From the IMG/VR virus record IMGVR_UViG_2698536395_000029: DNA of 15,001 nt. One strand, 5' to 3'. Within the stretch, counting starts at the first letter, position 1. The number at the start of each line of letters is the position of its first letter. Below are positions 234-15,001 of this stretch, one piece after another. Under the pieces are notes generated by a model. That model searched no databases and was not told the DNA's origin. It worked only from the letters and a program-made list of their open reading frames with translations. Both the position numbers and the translations under genes were made by a program. Source of the stretch: a virus (Duplodnaviria; Heunggongvirae; Uroviricota; Caudoviricetes).

Positions 234-250
234 GTTCGGTGCACTGTATG

Positions 251-276
251 AAACAACGTGGAACAAATAGACACAA
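251..276 (+). promoter_or_regulatory. Phased hexamer array AAACAA-N4-GAACAA-N4-ACACAA (10-bp period)
   Basis: Hexamers at 251-256, 261-266 and 271-276. The 15-mer AACAACGTGGAACAA (252-266) recurs exactly at 7715-7729. Confidence 0.5.
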
Positions 277-863: not shown

Positions 864-1145
864 TTACCGCCGCAACCGCTCCGGCTTCTTCCAGTGGTAC
901 GTGATTTTCTCCTTCTCCCGATACAGTTCAACGCGGCGATTGTAGGCCAGCATTTCAAGAACGCGGATCCGTATGTCGCGCATATCCGCATCATTAAGCT
1001 GGATACCATCACGGCGCATCACCTCAGCAACAACACGCGCATAATTTTCGGCTGTCACGCTGTCCGGCTGCGTGGTCTGTTCGTCAGCCTGCTGGCTGAT
1101 TCCAGAGACGCGGCGGATTAATCGCAGTATTTCGGCTTCTGTCAT
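864..1145 (-). CDS. Hypothetical protein (93 aa), last gene of the packaging operon
   Basis: ATG at 1145 preceded by GAGGT; begins 14 nt after the TerL stop on the same strand. No family recognised. Confidence 0.5.
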   Translation of the reverse strand: MTEAEILRLIRRVSGISQQADEQTTQPDSVTAENYARVVAEVMRRDGIQLNDADMRDIRIRVLEMLAYNRRVELYREKEKITYHWKKPERLRR

Positions 1146-1158
1146 GCTGCTGACCTCA

Positions 1159-2820
1159 TTACACCCCGCTAAATTCTTCCAGTTTCTGGCGGTGGCTGTC
1201 GCTTATATCAAAAGCAAAATCCTCATGCTCTGCCTGGAATGTACCAAACGCCATCAGCGCCGCTACGCTCGGGTCTATCTTGTTCGGTGATTTTTTCTTG
1301 TTCGGCTTGATATTGGCGTTCGCGTCACTCTGCATCACGACGTTACTCATCGACCAGGACAACACCGGATCGCCACGATGCACAATCACCCTGCGGTTAA
1401 CAAAAACTTCGAACGATTTCGCCGCCGGACTGAATCTGAGGTAGGTTTGCGGGAACGGCTCCACCTCAAAACCAGCCCCCTGTAATTGCGTCCTGAGATG
1501 CGTGGCGTTCCACGTATCAAAGCCCACCAGCCTGATATTAAATTTCTCCGCATCCTGCATGATGTCATCTCTGATCCGGTCGTAATCAATGCAGTCACCT
1601 GGCGTTGTGCGTATCCAGCCCGCTTTAGCCCACTGGCGATAGACAGCGCGGTTTTTATTGGCGGGGTTCTGTAGCTGGAACTCCGGCAGATAATGACGGG
1701 AAACCAGCATGATATTTTTACCGACCGGAAAGGCATAGCACACGCTGGAAATATCGCTGGTTGATGATAAGTCCAGCCCCGCGTAACACTCCTGCCCGTG
1801 TAAATCTTCCTCCGTGAACGTTCCGGCACACTCAGCCCATGCGCCGTTACCCATCCACGGGGTAGCCCCCTGGCACCAGATATTAAATCGCTTTGTCATC
1901 ATCTCCACCCACTGCGACGGAATACCCCGCGCTTTCTGGATGGTTGAGGCCAGTTTTTCACGATCGACGGAAACATCAATATTAGGGTTCGCCTTTATCC
2001 ACATCGCCGGATCATCAACCTCGTTTTCGTCGTCCAGCTCGTAAATCAGTACAAAAATTGAATCGTTAACCTCTTCGCCGTCCAGGATCTGGCAGCAATA
2101 ATCATAGTGCTGTTTACAGGCTGAAACGACGTTGCTGCCTGATGTGGTAATGGCAAATAACAGCCCTTCGGGACGTGCGCCCATCCCCAGCTCAAGCGCG
2201 GAATAAACGCCGTTATCGGGGTGCAAGTGGTATTCGTCCACGATGGAAAGGCTTGGGTTTGTTCCCTCGATGGTTGCCGCTTTTGCTGCCAGCGGCTTTA
2301 ACAGGCTGTTGCTTTTCGGGTGTATCACCTTATGCGCCTGAATATTCACCCGCCTGCGTAACGGTCGGGATAAAAGGCACATCTGACGCGCATCATCAAA
2401 GACGATCCGCGCCTGGTCACGGCTCACCGCTGCGGTGTAGATATCCTGCTGACCGTTCTCCATAATCAGAAACCAGTTAGCCAGAATCGCGGCGGTCGTG
2501 GATTTCGCATTTTTGCGCGGCACTTCGATAAAGGCGCTCGTGTATTTGCGCCGTCCGGTGGCCTTAACCTTAAAGCCGAGGATGCACGCAAAGGCGAACT
2601 GCTGCCACGGCTCCAGCTCAATGGGTCTGCCACGCATCGGTCCTTTTACGTGCGGGCACACCCTGGAAAAGGCAATAAACCGCTCCACAACCTCACGATC
2701 GAACGTGTAAAGGGGGCTTTTAAGGTCCGAAAAGTACCGTTTAACGGCCTGTTTCAGCCGTTTACAGGCCGGAATTTTGCCCGTTTTTACGTCTTCTGCG
2801 TACTTATTCCAGGCGGTCAA
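1159..2820 (-). CDS. terL: Terminase large subunit (Terminase_1-like ATPase/nuclease)
   Basis: 553 aa; Walker-A-like PRKNAKST near residue 100; size and position after TerS. Start per ORF track is TTG at 2820, overlapping the TerS stop; next in-frame ATG is ~60 codons in, so the exact start is uncertain. Confidence 0.9.
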   Translation of the reverse strand: MTAWNKYAEDVKTGKIPACKRLKQAVKRYFSDLKSPLYTFDREVVERFIAFSRVCPHVKGPMRGRPIELEPWQQFAFACILGFKVKATGRRKYTSAFIEVPRKNAKSTTAAILANWFLIMENGQQDIYTAAVSRDQARIVFDDARQMCLLSRPLRRRVNIQAHKVIHPKSNSLLKPLAAKAATIEGTNPSLSIVDEYHLHPDNGVYSALELGMGARPEGLLFAITTSGSNVVSACKQHYDYCCQILDGEEVNDSIFVLIYELDDENEVDDPAMWIKANPNIDVSVDREKLASTIQKARGIPSQWVEMMTKRFNIWCQGATPWMGNGAWAECAGTFTEEDLHGQECYAGLDLSSTSDISSVCYAFPVGKNIMLVSRHYLPEFQLQNPANKNRAVYRQWAKAGWIRTTPGDCIDYDRIRDDIMQDAEKFNIRLVGFDTWNATHLRTQLQGAGFEVEPFPQTYLRFSPAAKSFEVFVNRRVIVHRGDPVLSWSMSNVVMQSDANANIKPNKKKSPNKIDPSVAALMAFGTFQAEHEDFAFDISDSHRQKLEEFSGV

Positions 2821-3160
2821 GCTCGTCCTCTTCTTCTGTTTCCGGTGGGTTTTTACGGCGGCTTATCGGGTCAAAACCGAGCAAGGAGGCCATTTTTATC
2901 ATCACCCTTTCAGCGTCTGATTTCGCGCTTAATGCGGGGTTTCTGCTCTCGCCGCCCTGACTGTTAACAATGCTGAACCCGCGCGCCGCAAGGTCTGCGA
3001 CGGCTTTCCGGTAAATGGAGTAGTTGACACAATACAGTTCCAGATTGCTCCAGTCGGCGGGGGTCAGGTCTCCCCGTTCCGCAAGCTGCCGCGATTTTTC
3101 CCGCCACTGCTTCACGGCGATGTCATCCAGGTAGGCGGGGGCTTTCGGTGGTCTTGCCAT
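2804..3160 (-). CDS. terS: Terminase small subunit (P27-family-like)
   Basis: 118 aa; N-terminus MARPPKAPAYLDD and the YCVNYSIY motif are typical of P27-type TerS; sits immediately upstream of and overlapping TerL. Confidence 0.8.
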   Translation of the reverse strand: MARPPKAPAYLDDIAVKQWREKSRQLAERGDLTPADWSNLELYCVNYSIYRKAVADLAARGFSIVNSQGGESRNPALSAKSDAERVMIKMASLLGFDPISRRKNPPETEEEDELDRLE

Positions 3161-6341: not shown

Positions 6342-7499
6342 TTAATCGTCGTCCTGTGGCAGTTCCAGAATCTTGATCGCGTTCGAATCCACCACGCCAC
6401 CGCCTAAATATTTCTGCGTGAAAATTTTGATGAAGCCCGGCTCTGTGAGGTTGTCCGGTCTGGTGCGAACACCTGTTTCGTGATCAACAATGTAGTAACC
6501 GCGTTTGAAGTCACCCAGGGCAATAACGTTATCAGGCATAAACTCCAGATATTCGACCGGAAGGCCCAGCAACGTATCAGGATCACCCGCCTGTAAACGG
6601 TCGCGCCAGATATAATCACCGTTCGCGTTCTTCACCTTCTGAAGTTTTGCCGCCGTCGTGGAGTTAACCACCCAGACCGCGTTTTTGCGGTATTTTTTAC
6701 GTAATGCAAATTTCAGGTCGATCAGCGGGTCCGCAGATGTCCACGCCAGAGATTCGGAAGGTTTAATTACCTGCAACGTACCAAAATCACGCTCTTTGTC
6801 GTTCTTCTCTGCACGGGGTACGGATAAAAAACCTTTTGCTTTTTTGTCACCGTCGCCCACAACCAGATCGCTTTCTTCGGTTTCCGTGAAGGTGTCGCCA
6901 ATCTCACCCGTCAGCCATGAAAGGATGTCCACATCGGAAAAATCCACGATTTCCTGTGTGGTGCGCGGGTACGCATAGACCGGATACAGCTTAATGCTCA
7001 CCTCGTTAATCTGCGGGGGGCTGGTCTGTTCGCGTGCCTTACCCTCTTCACCGTGGTTAACGGTCGCACCGCCAGCGGAAACAAGCTGCTTAAACTCGTT
7101 GCTGCTGATTTTCTTCACGGTACAGATGCGGCGCATGGTGGATTCATCCGCCAGCATTCGCATGATTTCGGTGTTCAGTTCAGGGATAACGGTATAACCA
7201 CCATCAGCGGGAACGCCTGTACTTAATGCGCGGGTTTCACCTGTCAGAATGTAGTTGCGTAGTTCTGCGGGGTCAGTGGTCTGACTGCTTTTACCTGGCT
7301 TGCTGCGCTCTTCGTCTGCAATGGCTTCAAGGCGGGAAATGTCTTTATCGAGGGATTCAGCTTTAGCGCGTAATTCGTCAAATTTTGCGCCCTCAGCATC
7401 GTTAAGACTGCGGTTTTCTTTTTCCGCGTTCTCCAGCATGTCGCGCATCTGATTTTTAATGGCGGTTTTCTGCTGGCGTAATTCGATTATTCTCGGCAT
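6342..7499 (-). CDS. Major capsid protein (HK97 fold) with N-terminal coiled-coil delta/scaffold-like region
   Basis: Start set at ATG 7499 (MPRIIELRQQ); the track's upstream start at 7547 is GTG. The charged, helical N-terminal ~100 aa followed by a ~280-aa body is the HK97 pattern. Confidence 0.85.
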   Translation of the reverse strand: MPRIIELRQQKTAIKNQMRDMLENAEKENRSLNDAEGAKFDELRAKAESLDKDISRLEAIADEERSKPGKSSQTTDPAELRNYILTGETRALSTGVPADGGYTVIPELNTEIMRMLADESTMRRICTVKKISSNEFKQLVSAGGATVNHGEEGKAREQTSPPQINEVSIKLYPVYAYPRTTQEIVDFSDVDILSWLTGEIGDTFTETEESDLVVGDGDKKAKGFLSVPRAEKNDKERDFGTLQVIKPSESLAWTSADPLIDLKFALRKKYRKNAVWVVNSTTAAKLQKVKNANGDYIWRDRLQAGDPDTLLGLPVEYLEFMPDNVIALGDFKRGYYIVDHETGVRTRPDNLTEPGFIKIFTQKYLGGGVVDSNAIKILELPQDDD

Positions 7500-7506
7500 A
7501 AAAAAA

Positions 7507-7536
7507 GTCCTGGGGTTAAGTAAGGAACTCCAGGAC
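7507..7536 (-). promoter_or_regulatory. Hairpin whose 3' arm contains the capsid Shine-Dalgarno, followed by T7 and the capsid ATG
   Basis: Minus strand reads GTCCTGG-(16 nt)-CCAGGAC-TTTTTTT-ATG; the AGGA of the putative SD sits inside the stem. Confidence 0.45.
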
Positions 7537-7713
7537 GCGGCAAACACTCAACCGTTTTTCATAAGGAAATCAGTAATCGCACCGATCGTTTTCCCGCCTG
7601 GTAATGAATATTGGCGAGCACATTAACAGGCGGGAAAGTGGCCCCAGCGTCCTGGCACCACGGGCGAGAATACTCATGATTCAGTTCGGGTAAAATATGC
7701 CGATCCTGTCAGT

Positions 7714-7739
7714 GAACAACGTGGAACAACCACGAACAA
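7714..7739 (+). promoter_or_regulatory. Phased hexamer array GAACAA-cgtg-GAACAA-ccac-GAACAA (10-bp period) upstream of the head operon
   Basis: Hexamers at 7714-7719, 7724-7729 and 7734-7739, about 215-240 bp upstream of the capsid ATG. Confidence 0.5.
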
Positions 7740-7750
7740 ATAATTTACAA

Positions 7751-7779
7751 AAAATGACAAAAAGCCGGATTGCTCCGGC
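7751..7779 (-). terminator. Rho-independent terminator after the 74-aa orphan gene
   Basis: Minus strand GCCGGA-gcaa-TCCGGC followed by TTTTTGTCATTTT; 12 nt after the stop at 7791. Confidence 0.6.
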
Positions 7780-9109: not shown

Positions 9110-9158
9110 ATTTATTTTTACCCCCTCGTTTAAAAAGTTTTGAGTTGTGCCTCCCCTT

Positions 9159-9382
9159 GTCTACCTTATCTACCTTAGTGGCCCTCATACCAGTAATGGC
9201 GCGGCTTTCAGCTGGGTAGAGTGCTTTTATCCACTATCTACCCCGTGTCTACCTCCCTGTCTGATTCAGGTAAAATCAGGTAGAGAGGGTAGATAGTGGG
9301 TAGACAGTAAAAAAAGGCTATCTACCTAACTTAATGCACTGAATTAAATGTATTTTTCTTTACTCAGGTAGACAGGGTAGAC
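9159..9382. repeat. Iteron-type replication origin
   Basis: At least 11 copies of the 7-mer GGTAGA[C/T/G] or its complement in both orientations (9159, 9168, 9215, 9236, 9247, 9279, 9288, 9299, 9320, 9367, 9376), often at 9-11 bp spacing, flanking an AT-rich stretch at 9330-9366. Lies directly downstream of the primase stop. Confidence 0.75.
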
Positions 9383-9397
9383 AGCAATTACAAAAAA

Positions 9398-11152
9398 TTA
9401 TAAAAACGCGTCGCACTCGTCTGTTGTTATTGCGTTAGTCTGCGTTACTCCCTTAACTTTCCGCGTAATATATTCATGTCCGTAAACTTTCGCGGCTGGC
9501 TTCATAGCCTTGCCAAAGTCATTTACGTTTAGCGGTTTGCTCCTGCCTGCGTACGCCATAAACGCCAGATAGACGCGGTAAAGGCTGTTTCTGGTCGTGT
9601 ACTTCACTGAATCGCCACCGCCGCCCATCATCAGGCCGCGTGCTTCCTCCAGAAAATTCAGGAACTGGCAAAACTCAATAACCGGATCCGTCTGTTGCTT
9701 TATTGCCAGAGCTTCATCACCGTCACGCTGTTCCAGTAGTAAAGCCCGTGCCTTCTCAGGGTCGGTAAAGTTCGCCAGCAATCGGCGGATAATGACAGGG
9801 ATTTCAGCCGCGATCTTTTCCGGTAGCTCCCTGTCTTTTTCGGCCTCACTGACGATATTGTCGAAACGGAAAATCACGCGACGACGTGCCACACCTCCGG
9901 CCCGTTCGGTGAATATCATCGGGTTATTGTTGGTCGCCAGCACCACCGCCCTGATTACAGCCGTGAAACGCTTTTCGTATTTCGGGTTAATTTCCACGGG
10001 GTCACCGCCCGTGATTTTCTTGATGCCCGTTCCTTCGCCTGTATATTTCGGCTGGTCAGCCAGGACGATAAGACGACTCCCGACAACCTGCGCACGTCCA
10101 CCAGCATCATCAAGCGATGTCATTTCAGCGCTTACCGTGTTCTGTTTCCCTGCCAGAAGGCTGGCTATGTGCGTGAATGTACTTTTACCGCTCCCGCCGT
10201 CTCCGGTGGCCTCAATAAACATCTGCCAGTCGTACCGGTTCGCCATAATCATGTACAGCGCGGCACATATACGCATCATCTTGCGCGGGTCTTTTCCGGC
10301 TGCGTGCTCAAGCCATTTATGAAAGTTTGGCGCGTTATCGCGGATGTTCTCCCCTGGTGCTGGTGGCGTGTACTCAATGCCGTTGTGCGTGGTGATCCAG
10401 TTCTCCGGCGTGTGCGGGGAAAATTCCCCCGTTTTCAGGTCAAGCGCACCATTGGCGAACGGCAGCAAATCGCCGGACGGCTCGCCCATTGGTTCGGCAA
10501 TAACTTTTAACGCTTCCACGGCGTTATTGATTACGCGCTTGCTGAAAGTGGCCCTGTGCTCTGAATAGATCGCCACCATTTCGCGGCTAAGTTCCATTGT
10601 GCTGACCGGACACCATACCCCGCCGCGCCATACGTGAACGATTTCACTTTCAGGATGTACGCAAACGCCATCAAAGCGATCGGCAAGCAGCTGCGCGCGC
10701 TCACTGTCCGCCATCTGCGAAAGTTGCGCCTTTTGCTTTACCGGAAGCTCAATGACCAGACCATCAGAAAGATTCTGGCGCTCACGAGCCAGATATTCGC
10801 GCCAGTTCTCCACCTTCTGACCGTGCATACCATCAGGGTAAAAATTTGCATCCTGTACGCCTGCCGCCGCCAGCTTCTGACCAATCGCCTTTATCATTAC
10901 TGGCGCAAGATATCCGGCCCTGAATATGCGCACGGATTTTCTGCCTTCCGGCACAATTTGCAGCTTATCCAGTTCGGATAACTGCTGCTCCCCAAGCCAC
11001 ACAGGAGGCTCATTATCTCCGGCCATACGCGCGTCATGTTCCTGCCATTGTTTTGCGTGTGACCAGGCATCACTACCCGCAAAAATAATGACTTCTGTTT
11101 CTTTGTGTTTTATGCCGCGTGACTGCTGTTTTACGTTCGGTGCCAGTTTCAT
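9398..11152 (-). CDS. Primase/helicase replication protein (P4-alpha-like; D5-type NTPase C-terminal domain)
   Basis: 584 aa; Walker A GDGGSGKST at ~residue 318 with the surrounding D5/P4-family helicase context; N-terminal primase-like region; iteron origin immediately downstream. Confidence 0.85.
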   Translation of the reverse strand: MKLAPNVKQQSRGIKHKETEVIIFAGSDAWSHAKQWQEHDARMAGDNEPPVWLGEQQLSELDKLQIVPEGRKSVRIFRAGYLAPVMIKAIGQKLAAAGVQDANFYPDGMHGQKVENWREYLARERQNLSDGLVIELPVKQKAQLSQMADSERAQLLADRFDGVCVHPESEIVHVWRGGVWCPVSTMELSREMVAIYSEHRATFSKRVINNAVEALKVIAEPMGEPSGDLLPFANGALDLKTGEFSPHTPENWITTHNGIEYTPPAPGENIRDNAPNFHKWLEHAAGKDPRKMMRICAALYMIMANRYDWQMFIEATGDGGSGKSTFTHIASLLAGKQNTVSAEMTSLDDAGGRAQVVGSRLIVLADQPKYTGEGTGIKKITGGDPVEINPKYEKRFTAVIRAVVLATNNNPMIFTERAGGVARRRVIFRFDNIVSEAEKDRELPEKIAAEIPVIIRRLLANFTDPEKARALLLEQRDGDEALAIKQQTDPVIEFCQFLNFLEEARGLMMGGGGDSVKYTTRNSLYRVYLAFMAYAGRSKPLNVNDFGKAMKPAAKVYGHEYITRKVKGVTQTNAITTDECDAFL

Positions 11153-12951: not shown

Positions 12952-13036
12952 TTGCATTGCCCACCAGCCTGATAGCGGCTATCATCCCCGTGCTTATGTT
13001 TGGGATCACACACACAAACGGCGCAGCGGGTTATCT

Positions 13037-13220: not shown

Positions 13221-13409
13221 TTAATGAACTGCCTTGCAGCTATCCTTCCAGGCCAGAACCTCGGATAAAGACCAGCCAACGGAACGACCGCCAAGTTTAC
13301 GACGTGATGGGAATTGTCCGGCCTTTTCCAGGCGGTAGCGGCATGAGCGGCTAAGGCCTGTTAGCTTTTCGCATTCTTTTTCACGTATAAACCGATCAGT
13401 GCTTAACAC
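13221..13409 (-). CDS. alpA: AlpA-family transcriptional regulator / excisionase-like HTH protein
   Basis: 62 aa; LTGLSRSCRYRLEKAGQFPSRRKLGGRSVGWSLSEVLAW matches the AlpA signature (TGLSRST.YR....G.FP.P.KLG.R.V.W...EV..W). Start is GTG at 13409 with AAGGGGG SD. Confidence 0.85.
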   Translation of the reverse strand: MLSTDRFIREKECEKLTGLSRSCRYRLEKAGQFPSRRKLGGRSVGWSLSEVLAWKDSCKAVH

Positions 13410-13600: not shown

Positions 13601-13692
13601 CTCGCCATTTAAAGAGTGATTCGCTAGTGTATAAAAAACCAGTAACACATTAAAAATCAGCCACTTATAAATCCGTACACTTTTTCGCCTCT

Positions 13693-13737
13693 TGTTCGTA
13701 GTTGTTCCGCATTGTTGCTCATTGTTGCATGTTGTAT
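13693..13737 (-). promoter_or_regulatory. Array of four to five TTGTT[C/G] hexamers at exact 10-bp phasing (minus strand GAACAA/CAACAA)
   Basis: Hexamers at 13693, 13703, 13713, 13723 and a degenerate one at 13732; about 285-330 bp upstream of alpA and 50-90 bp downstream of the int stop. Confidence 0.55.
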
Positions 13738-13750
13738 CTGTTCGCATATC

Positions 13751-13766
13751 CAGTATGCGCATACTG
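13751..13766. promoter_or_regulatory. 16-bp perfect palindrome CAGTATGCGCATACTG
   Basis: Exact dyad symmetry 18 bp downstream of the int stop; no U-run on the int strand, so more likely an operator than a terminator. Confidence 0.45.
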
Positions 13767-13783
13767 AAAAAACACGAAAAAAA

Positions 13784-15001
13784 TTATTTTCTTCTGGCTA
13801 CTGGTAGCGTGGTTACGTTTTCATGTGTTCCCGCCAGTATCCCTAACCGCTCCGTCCACATATCCAGCGCATTGCGTTTAGCATCCAGATAACGGGAATG
13901 ATTATAAACTCGCTGCATTCCTGGCATCTGATGACCTGTAAGCTGCTCCACGACATGCGGATCAACGCCTAAATCGTTCAGCATGGTTGTAAAGGTGCGC
14001 CGGATGTCATGCAGTGACCAGTGAGGATGATTAAGCCTCCTGTGCGCTAATCTTCCATACTGCGATACGCTGGCCTCCTGTTTCGCTTCCCCCAGCAATA
14101 AGCCCGTGTGCCTGTTCTGCTCCACCAGCTGCGTGACGAACGGCAGGATCGCTTCCGGTATGGGCCGGAATATTGCGACCTTCGTTTTGCTGTGCTCCTT
14201 CGGAACGGTCCATAGCATTTCCGTAAAATCCCACTCCCCGATCTCCGATAGCCTCAGTTCTACCGTCCTGGCTCCGAAGACAATCAGGAGGCGGATTAAC
14301 GCGACGTAGTAAGGGGAAAATATTTTTTTGTCCAGTGCCTGCAATAATTCGCCAAGTTCTTTGTTACTTAAGACACGTTCGCTTATATCCGGTTTTTTCC
14401 CAACGTCCGCCACGTTCAGATCGTCCAGAACGTTGCTGATTGCATAGCGCCGCCTACGGCAGAACTTAAGCGCCTGTTTGCACGCCTGTAGCACGAATCC
14501 GGCAGTAACAGGCGTTCGCTTTGCCACCTGGTCAAAACAGGCCAGCCAGTGCCGTAGCTCGCATTTATCCAGCGGCATAGCACCAATCTGCTGTATTACG
14601 TGATTATTAAGTCGCCTTTTCAGGGCGATATAATCCACGCGGTTTTCCTTTACGTAATACTCAAGCCAGTAGGTGAGCGCATCGCCAACCGTTACGGGCT
14701 TTAACGCTTCCTGTACGGTGTAATTCATCTCATGACGTGGATTTTTCCCCTCAGCCAGCCATGTGCGACACTGTGCGGCTTTTTCCCTGGCTGCTTTCAG
14801 GCTCAGATCAGGATAACTTCCCAGCTTAATGCGTTCGGGTCGTGTCTCCCTTCCCGTTCCGGCCCTGTATGTGAAATACCAGGTCAATTTCCCTGATGTT
14901 AAATATTTCACGCTCAGGTTTCCGCCATCACTATAAAACGTGTTTTTCTCCGCTGGCTTACCATGAAGTTTCCTTAGCAAGGTATCGCTCAGTTTGTTCA
15001 T
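13784..15001 (-). CDS. int: Tyrosine integrase (P4/CP4-57-type, N-terminal arm-binding domain plus catalytic domain)
   Basis: 405 aa; ATG at 15001, the window edge. The N-terminus (LSDTLLRKLHGKPAEK...YSDGGNLSVKY...WYFTYR) follows the P4-type arm-binding pattern; the C-terminus has HDIRRT and RVYNHSRY consistent with the H-x-x-R and catalytic Tyr. Confidence 0.9.
   Translation of the reverse strand: MNKLSDTLLRKLHGKPAEKNTFYSDGGNLSVKYLTSGKLTWYFTYRAGTGRETRPERIKLGSYPDLSLKAAREKAAQCRTWLAEGKNPRHEMNYTVQEALKPVTVGDALTYWLEYYVKENRVDYIALKRRLNNHVIQQIGAMPLDKCELRHWLACFDQVAKRTPVTAGFVLQACKQALKFCRRRRYAISNVLDDLNVADVGKKPDISERVLSNKELGELLQALDKKIFSPYYVALIRLLIVFGARTVELRLSEIGEWDFTEMLWTVPKEHSKTKVAIFRPIPEAILPFVTQLVEQNRHTGLLLGEAKQEASVSQYGRLAHRRLNHPHWSLHDIRRTFTTMLNDLGVDPHVVEQLTGHQMPGMQRVYNHSRYLDAKRNALDMWTERLGILAGTHENVTTLPVARRK

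Follow-up and report, generated by a model that had tools for sequence, protein, structure and literature searches.

Recombination directionality factors (RDFs) bind one-turn tandem repeats head to tail and need at least about three adjacent sites (PMC7498355). The RDFs of P2-like phages and of P4 also regulate promoters far from att through att-like sites (PMC7498355). In phage 186, Apl has five direct repeats at att and another seven in the pR-pL interval, spaced 10 to 11 bp apart, and it binds only where at least three sites are adjacent; P4 Vis both excises and regulates promoters (PMC7498355). For KplE1 TorI, the site cores are GTTCG, GATCG, and GTCCG, and a block of three sites 2 nt apart (10-bp phasing) lies next to the -35 of PintS (PMC2951348). 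Dual-purpose RDF/regulators with phased boxes at att and promoters are already known, and include Cox, Apl, Vis, and TorI.

The AlpA protein of Gram-negative PICIs is described as the counterpart of P4 Vis (PMC6092414). In EcCICFT073, AlpA activates PalpA and not Pint, and AlpA alone leads to int-dependent excision and replication of the island without raising Pint (PMC6092414). The activation was shown on a cloned alpA promoter region, the extent of which was not given, and the helper phage factor that induces alpA is not known (PMC6092414). Published work also reports that an alpA mutation abolishes induction and transfer of EcCIEDL933, and alpA overexpression has been used to boost cf-PICI production. 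In helper-embedded PICIs (HE-PICIs), the motif tgTGTATTGCa occurs as two doublets, 81 and 132 bp from the attP center, and the choice of binder was left open, with AlpA, an unknown protein, and the arm domains of Int as the options (PMC10111431). That motif was reported as unique to HE-PICIs, and phased TTGTTC arrays were not described (PMC10111431). In the searchable literature, we found no description of the DNA target of AlpA in Gram-negative PICIs and none of phased TTGTTC arrays or a direct cis-link to the capsid operon of cf-PICIs.

We analyzed a 15,001-nucleotide stretch of DNA (the window; IMG/VR record IMGVR_UViG_2698536395_000029), which is 100% identical to positions 2219696-2234695 of the E. 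coli strain 20.1 chromosome. The island it holds is a capsid-forming PICI (cf-PICI) of the EcCIEDL933 type, ~15 kb long and inserted in tqsA. Its genes match the cf-PICI set described previously (10.1101/2022.09.08.507074). Islands of this type have int, alpA, primase, HK97-type capsid, protease, portal, connector, HNH, TerS, and TerL genes and a dedicated att site but no tail or lysis genes, and the RefSeq annotation of the identical locus shows this gene set. All of the island genes are on the minus strand, in the order int, alpA, an icd-like gene, primase, ssb, perC, a 74-aa open reading frame, and the capsid/packaging operon. The genes that matter here are as follows.

13784-15001, minus strand: int, a P4-type tyrosine integrase with an Arm-DNA-bind_3 domain; the gene runs to window-equivalent 15012
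13221-13409, minus strand: alpA, a 62-aa protein of the Phage_AlpA family (Pfam PF05930, E 5e-18)
9398-11152, minus strand: primase
6342-7498, minus strand: major capsid protein gene by annotation, first in the capsid/packaging operon
864-1145, minus strand: a 93-aa open reading frame, also part of the capsid/packaging operon (RefSeq annotation of the identical locus)

After the capsid gene come the protease, portal, connector, HNH, terS, and terL genes, down to position 1159. In the annotation of the identical RefSeq locus, terL (window 1159-2820) is frameshifted, so this island copy may be packaging-defective.

Some other features of the window were seen along the way. A long word, AAAGCCCACCAGCCTGAT(A), is present in three copies: in the left noncoding arm (388-405, as the reverse complement), inside terL (1519-1537), and downstream of alpA (12959-12975). 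In minus-strand RNA, the arm copy would be able to pair with both of the others, reminiscent of RNA immunity of the P4 type. At the arm position, EcCICFT073, the SS52 island, the Shigella island, L077, and L128 all retain a 14-mer core of this word, and other cf-PICIs have the core in terL. Between the last gene and the att arm, positions 450-620 are dense with imperfect palindromes, such as TGATACCCCAA/TTTGGGTATCA and a pair of 33-nt arms at 499-569. This cluster is kept in L017 (about 2920-3000), a cf-PICI with a different integrase, and is a candidate cos/packaging site or structured RNA. An Rfam scan of the whole window found no family at its threshold.

The first-pass annotation had singled out an exact 15-mer shared by the left arm and the region upstream of the head operon, and it proposed a common protein-binding site that would link the two, for which alpA was the factor to be tested. 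The 15-mer, AACAACGTGGAACAA, is indeed present at 252-266 and 7715-7729, both on the plus strand. A further copy with two mismatches is at 13702-13716 on the opposite strand. With up to two mismatches, 0.06 matches to AACAACGTGGAACAA are expected, and three were reached in 0 of 200 shuffles. The annotation had put the chance of a lone exact pair at around one in ten, which was fair: some 15-mer is repeated in 31% of mononucleotide shuffles, and the unshuffled window has other repeated 15-mers too. Since a lone exact pair is not rare, the significance rests on the phased context. Each copy lies in an array of three units with 10-bp phasing, as had been claimed, although in the left array the third unit, ACACAA, is degenerate. 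These two arrays are real, but they are half of a system of four. The arrays, named A to D here, are listed with their units read as TTGTT.

247-276, minus strand: array A, three 10-bp units, TTGTGTCTAT TTGTTCCACG TTGTTTCATA, in the int-distal att arm; holds the first copy of the 15-mer
7710-7739, minus strand: array B, TTGTTCGTGG TTGTTCCACG TTGTTCACTG, upstream of the capsid operon; holds the second copy of the 15-mer
13692-13741, plus strand: array C, five units, TTGTTCGTAG TTGTTCCGCA TTGTTGCTCA TTGTTGCATG TTGTATCTGT, between the int stop codon and alpA
Window-equivalent 15069-15102 (L001 18069-18102), outside the window: array D, four units, 57-90 bp upstream of the int start codon

The phasing is far beyond chance. 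Within the window, ACAA-N6-ACAA-N6-ACAA had five matches (0.00 expected) and AACAA-N5-AACAA had six (0.04 expected), all of them in three noncoding places. A looser chain rule found three arrays in the window, compared to 0.03 per shuffled window, and none in 48.8 kb of flanking chromosome from five loci. Related islands provided 32 distinct arrays with 138 units, for which the unit consensus is TTGTTC(C/G)(A/T)CG. The commonest single unit among the 138 is TTGTTCCACG, and AACAACGTGGAACAA in gene-strand reading is simply this unit plus the TTGTT of the next. Therefore, the identity of positions 252 and 7715 arises because both are the consensus unit followed by TTGTT, and it does not signify a special relation between the two sites. 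The same string is also present in array C of other PICIs. A scan of viral contigs for three TTGTTC-N4 units had more than 120 matches, mostly in unrelated phages, so the motif alone is not diagnostic and only the PICI matches are informative.

All four arrays have at least three direct repeats with exact 10-bp spacing, as is characteristic of RDF arrays. Arrays A, C, and D have three, five, and four units, and array B has three, or up to five if two weaker units upstream of it are counted. Arrays A, B, and D have one orientation, and array C has the other. The consensus of the att arrays also holds for B and C, and C is upstream of alpA in the int-alpA spacer. We rejected iterons of a replication origin as an explanation because there is no array in 9110-9397, downstream of primase, where relatives have distinct TTCACC iterons.

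In relatives, the box cores and their phase are kept, and the spacers, unit number, and flanks diverge. EcCICFT073 (L014 4652-4675), the SS52 island, the Shigella island, and others have an identically placed equivalent of array A. Counterparts of A, C, and D occupy the corresponding positions in EcCICFT073 and in a classical PICI of O157:H7. The int-alpA spacer of the CFT073 island has diverged beyond detection by megablast, yet it has six phased units, and the invariant columns of its alignment are the AACAA cores. Among 47 distinct int-alpA spacers from viral contig loci with an AlpA at least 88% identical, 46 have three to six phased units, which lie at -276 to -350 relative to the start of alpA. 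This spacer exists in at least eight versions, one of which has a clean 10-bp unit duplication, and unit number varies in 10-bp steps. Array C and the int stop codon are separated by DNA that includes a perfect 16-bp palindrome, CAGTATGCGCATACTG (13752-13767). The SS52 and Shigella versions have this palindrome, as the window does, whereas EcCICFT073 has a deletion of it.

E. coli and Shigella cf-PICIs carry array B ahead of the capsid gene, even where int and alpA are just 64 to 76% identical (L016, L077, L105, and L107). Classical PICIs carry the same alpA and have the same terminator hairpin, but it is followed by unrelated DNA from which array B is absent. Array B is specific to cf-PICIs. 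Not all cf-PICIs follow the pattern of the window. Array B is degenerate in L017 and L018, two cf-PICIs with no annotated PerC; the arm arrays of L018 are intact. In cf-PICIs with a 62 to 68% identical AlpA, the arm arrays are kept, sometimes in degenerate form, and array C is absent. Directly upstream of alpA, these islands instead have two GTGATATCAC palindromes (L016 15478-15507; L017 15725-15755), and they have an extra gene between int and alpA. This replacement of array C suggests that a different input controls alpA there. L077 combines a head module of the window type (99% identical), including an identical array B, with a 64% identical AlpA and TTGTTCG arm arrays. It also has a three-unit TTGTTCG array (1455-1479) immediately 3' of alpA in the direction of transcription, which may mark one more promoter under AlpA control, that of the next operon.

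The att arms contain a second type of repeat beside the boxes.

129-137: probable crossover core TGCTGTTAT, inside tqsA; the other junction is at L001 18188-18196
211-235, plus strand: 11-mer GTGACTACACC in two copies with 12-bp spacing, ~90 bp from the crossover core

The interrupted tqsA has an identity block in common at its two ends, and this 9-mer is probably where crossover occurs. Each arm has a GTGACTACACC doublet followed by a box array in the same orientation; the second doublet and array D are just upstream of int, outside the window. The doublets are about 90 and 144 bp from the core. P4, which has an Int of the same type, has annotated doubled 12-bp arm repeats in attP at 75 and 134 bp from its core, but we found no TTGTTC arrays beside those doublets. 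The HE-PICI motif has the same tandem doublet form and placement as the island doublets. However, equivalent doublets with other sequences are present in ordinary PICIs and cf-PICIs, and there each adjoins a box array.

The sequence of the doublet follows the integrase. The window and EcCICFT073 have GTGACTACACC, and it is replaced by CTGACCACACA with a 68% identical Int, by CTGACTGCAC with a 54% identical Int, and by GTGTATCACTC with a 50% identical Int. The boxes are (T)TGTTCG throughout, and across Int alleles of 54 to 100% identity they stay constant while the adjoining doublet changes. This covariation suggests that the doublets are probably the integrase arm-type sites, and it implies separate binders for doublets and boxes. 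Arrays A and D then occupy the position expected of RDF arrays, in an att arm beside the putative Int arm-type sites.

Upstream of the capsid operon, array B is set between a terminator and a putative promoter.

7762-7779, minus strand: intrinsic terminator hairpin AGCCGGAGCAATCCGGCT followed by a T-run, at the end of the upstream operon and just before array B
7740-7760, minus strand: conserved box TTTTGTAAATTAT (7752-7740) and two weak TTGT units, immediately upstream of array B
7667-7694, minus strand: putative weak sigma-70 promoter, found by eye, with TTTACC (7694-7689), a 16-bp spacer, and TATTCT (7672-7667)

Array B is 25 bp upstream of this putative capsid operon promoter and would span about -50 to -79, a typical position for an upstream activator. 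The candidate TTTACC-16-TATTCT aligns with TTTACA-16-TATGTT in L016, a diverged cf-PICI. A sigma-70 scan around array B found no promoter scoring at least 9/12, which fits activator dependence. The same scan found no consensus promoter near array A, B, or D and two weak candidates 130 to 190 bp downstream of array C. Strong structure is predicted for the capsid gene leader (7499-7662, minus strand; minimum free energy, -66.6 kcal/mol; z, -5.2). One of its hairpins has 17 bp (7637-7590). Another (7536-7500) precedes a U7 run, abuts the ATG at 7498, and looks like a terminator, an attenuator, or a structure that occludes the start codon.

Cf-PICIs of three other genera have a different repeat at the array B position. 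In those of Erwinia psidii, Rosenbergiella, and Citrobacter, three TTACCC units with 10-bp phasing are found between the same flanks.

L003 3944-3975: three TTACCC units, Rosenbergiella
L004 9797-9830: three TTACCC units, Citrobacter
L005 9792-9823: three TTACCC units, Erwinia

Cf-PICIs of E. coli, Shigella, Erwinia, and Rosenbergiella all retain the TTTTGTAAATTAT box, whichever repeat follows it (TTGTTC or TTACCC). Citrobacter has a version with one mismatch, TTTTGTAAATTTT, and Gilliamella has a looser one. The TTACCC units overlap a terminator-like hairpin (CCCCTGTCTCTGACGGGGG and a T-run). In the Erwinia and Citrobacter islands, the two for which the regulatory end is available, an HTH_17 excisionase-like protein replaces AlpA. 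TTACCC goes with HTH_17 and TTGTTC goes with AlpA, so the repeat cassette at the B position changes with the regulatory module. However, in the same two islands we found no TTACCC arrays at the att arms or the regulator gene, and the arms have a GGTATCC doublet and AAATAC-type phased repeats. Therefore, a link between the arms and the capsid operon is not universal but belongs to the AlpA/TTGTTC lineage.

AlpA of the window is an RDF-family protein, both by its Pfam assignment and by its excisionase fold. The AlphaFold model is a winged helix (pLDDT 87). Its best structural match is the GIsul2 excisionase (TM 0.79/0.86), followed by RdfS, TorI, and MerR-type wings. By sequence, the sole match in the PDB is 8c3t, an AlpA-family protein (E 2.6e-6), and a literature search found no paper on that entry. 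The AlpA of Pseudomonas aeruginosa was considered and rejected as a model, because it shares the name alone. The Pseudomonas protein is structurally like the 21Q antiterminator and reads GGGACG (PMC9371919). Its class is defined by a C-terminal helix-turn-helix with contacts up to H142, by GGGACG between -35 and -10, and by loading onto RNA polymerase, whereas the island AlpA is a 62-aa protein with the fold of an excisionase.

We propose that AlpA would bind the TTGTTC boxes cooperatively, head to tail every 10 bp, as a short filament, in the manner of Xis, Cox, Apl, and TorI. At arrays A and D, it would bend the DNA and steer Int toward excision. At array C, it would mediate the published positive autoregulation of alpA, and at array B it would switch on the capsid/packaging operon from a weak promoter that is insulated by a terminator. 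One protein would then couple excision, its own amplification, and capsid production. To this proposal, our analysis contributes the arrays with their statistics, positions, and conservation, and the family and fold of AlpA. The literature contributes autoactivation by AlpA, int-dependent excision by AlpA, and the need for alpA in cf-PICI induction. AlpA as the binder, the position of the capsid promoter, and activation at array B are what we infer. As far as in silico evidence goes, a common protein-binding site, as the first-pass annotation had envisaged, is supported: the arrays exceed chance, their phased cores are conserved, they occupy RDF-type positions, and the island encodes AlpA.

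Each of the known systems resembles part of this proposal and differs in another. P2 Cox is also a small RDF of the helix-turn-helix type with one-turn direct repeats, acting both as an att excisionase and as a promoter regulator. Three TTAAAG units with 10-bp phasing are upstream of vis in P4 (9176-9205), and we take these to be the boxes through which P2 Cox activates PLL. This action of Cox on the P4 late promoter was reportedly described by Saha et al. in 1989 (cited in PMC7498355). However, Cox is not an AlpA homologue, its box has a different sequence, and it acts in trans from the helper phage, whereas AlpA is the satellite's own. Also unlike the Cox system, here the arrays are on both att arms and the target is the capsid/packaging operon. 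Apl is likewise a dual-purpose RDF and transcription regulator, but it represses, whereas the role proposed for AlpA at arrays B and C is activation, and its fold family and motif differ. TorI is a winged-helix RDF on which the AlpA model superposes (1z4h, TM 0.64), and its site cores resemble TTGTTCG. However, its sites are described on attL only, it represses intS, and it has no known role at structural gene promoters; phmmer found no sequence similarity between TorI and AlpA at E≤1. P4 Vis is just remotely related to PICI AlpA, and P4 has no capsid operon.

On balance, we think AlpA is probably the protein that binds the TTGTTC boxes. Tandem one-turn repeats at att and at promoters, the RDF precedents, and the published AlpA data together make it the most economical binder, and both the module swap in L077 and the HTH_17/TTACCC replacement fit a shared box specificity. 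Several observations go against it. Islands with a 62 to 68% identical AlpA have GTGATATCAC palindromes in place of array C, and in the HTH_17 lineage the repeats at position B differ from those in the arms. RDF sites are classically on one att arm, but the boxes here are on both. Arrays B and C face opposite ways, and C has a greater distance to its candidate promoter (about -70 to -115, versus -50 to -79 for B), so one simple activation geometry does not fit both. Finally, array D is upstream of int, yet published Pint reporters did not respond to AlpA (PMC6092414).

The integrase itself might instead bind the boxes as arm-type sites of its N-terminal domain and also regulate the alpA and capsid operon regions. 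Arrays on both att arms are what arm-type sites would look like, the island Int has the Arm-DNA-bind_3 domain, and the box-bearing islands all carry one integrase clade. Autoregulation through arm sites is known for IntS (PMC2951348). Furthermore, Int alleles covary with AlpA alleles in our sample, so sequence alone cannot fully separate the two proteins; the sample for AlpA against the boxes was a clade with 62 to 100% AlpA identity, and the viral contig locus search returned mostly close relatives. Even so, beside each array there is a better arm-site candidate, the doubled 11-mer, which has P4-like spacing and covaries with Int. The constancy of the boxes across Int alleles and the distance of two of the four arrays, B and C, from att (7.4 kb and 1.3 kb) do not fit Int arm-type sites. 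We know of no precedent for the activation of capsid genes by an integrase, and we consider this explanation quite unlikely. A binder other than AlpA and Int is unlikely too, if a somewhat better prospect. It could be an island product (PerC, the YlcI/YnfO-like protein, or the 74-aa or 93-aa hypothetical protein), the helper phage inducer, or a host response regulator that reads 10-bp repeats. A helper phage factor does induce alpA, as mentioned above, and PerC-family activators are encoded next to array B, which is degenerate in the two islands with no annotated PerC. Against PerC, the arm arrays are intact in one of these two, L018, and classical PICIs have PerC but not array B. To our knowledge, the motif has no convincing match to the consensus of OmpR, ArcA, PhoB, CpxR, DnaA, or IHF. 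One-turn tandem repeats inside att arms are, moreover, an RDF signature (PMC7498355).

It is very improbable that the arrays have no site-specific function and are duplication or recombination remnants or bent DNA, with the 15-mer identity due to chance. Repeated 15-mers do occur in shuffled windows, and PICI modules do recombine, as L077 illustrates. However, such remnants would not explain periodic conservation across at least 32 distinct arrays, in which cores are kept and spacers are free, or changes of unit number in exact 10-bp steps. Nor would they explain the fixed positions of the arrays relative to att, alpA, and the capsid promoter, or their absence from the controls (shuffles and flanking chromosome). 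Whatever probability these explanations and AlpA binding leave over goes to mixed or unforeseen cases.

If AlpA is the binder, a broader reading is that AlpA of cf-PICIs is a single master switch that wires excision, its own amplification, and capsid production and packaging together through one type of box. We offer this tentatively, as a possibility that we rate below AlpA binding itself. If it is true, capsid production would be independent of the late regulators of the helper, and this would account for the tail-less capsids that are reportedly released without a helper. The regulator cassette upstream of the conserved promoter, which is swapped between lineages (TTGTTC/AlpA versus TTACCC/HTH_17), would then be a modular, exchangeable "regulator plug" for satellite late operons.

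Such control by AlpA would be new for these satellites, as far as the searched literature goes. AlpA is the master activator of Gram-negative PICIs, and a defined box would make its regulon predictable from sequence. If the box model is true, it explains how AlpA triggers excision without raising int transcription, and it provides a reason for cf-PICIs to make capsids on their own schedule. The distinction between doublets and boxes would separate Int arm sites from RDF sites in P4-type attP regions, a question that the HE-PICI study left open. A defined box would also be a handle for the engineering of PICI-based delivery vehicles.
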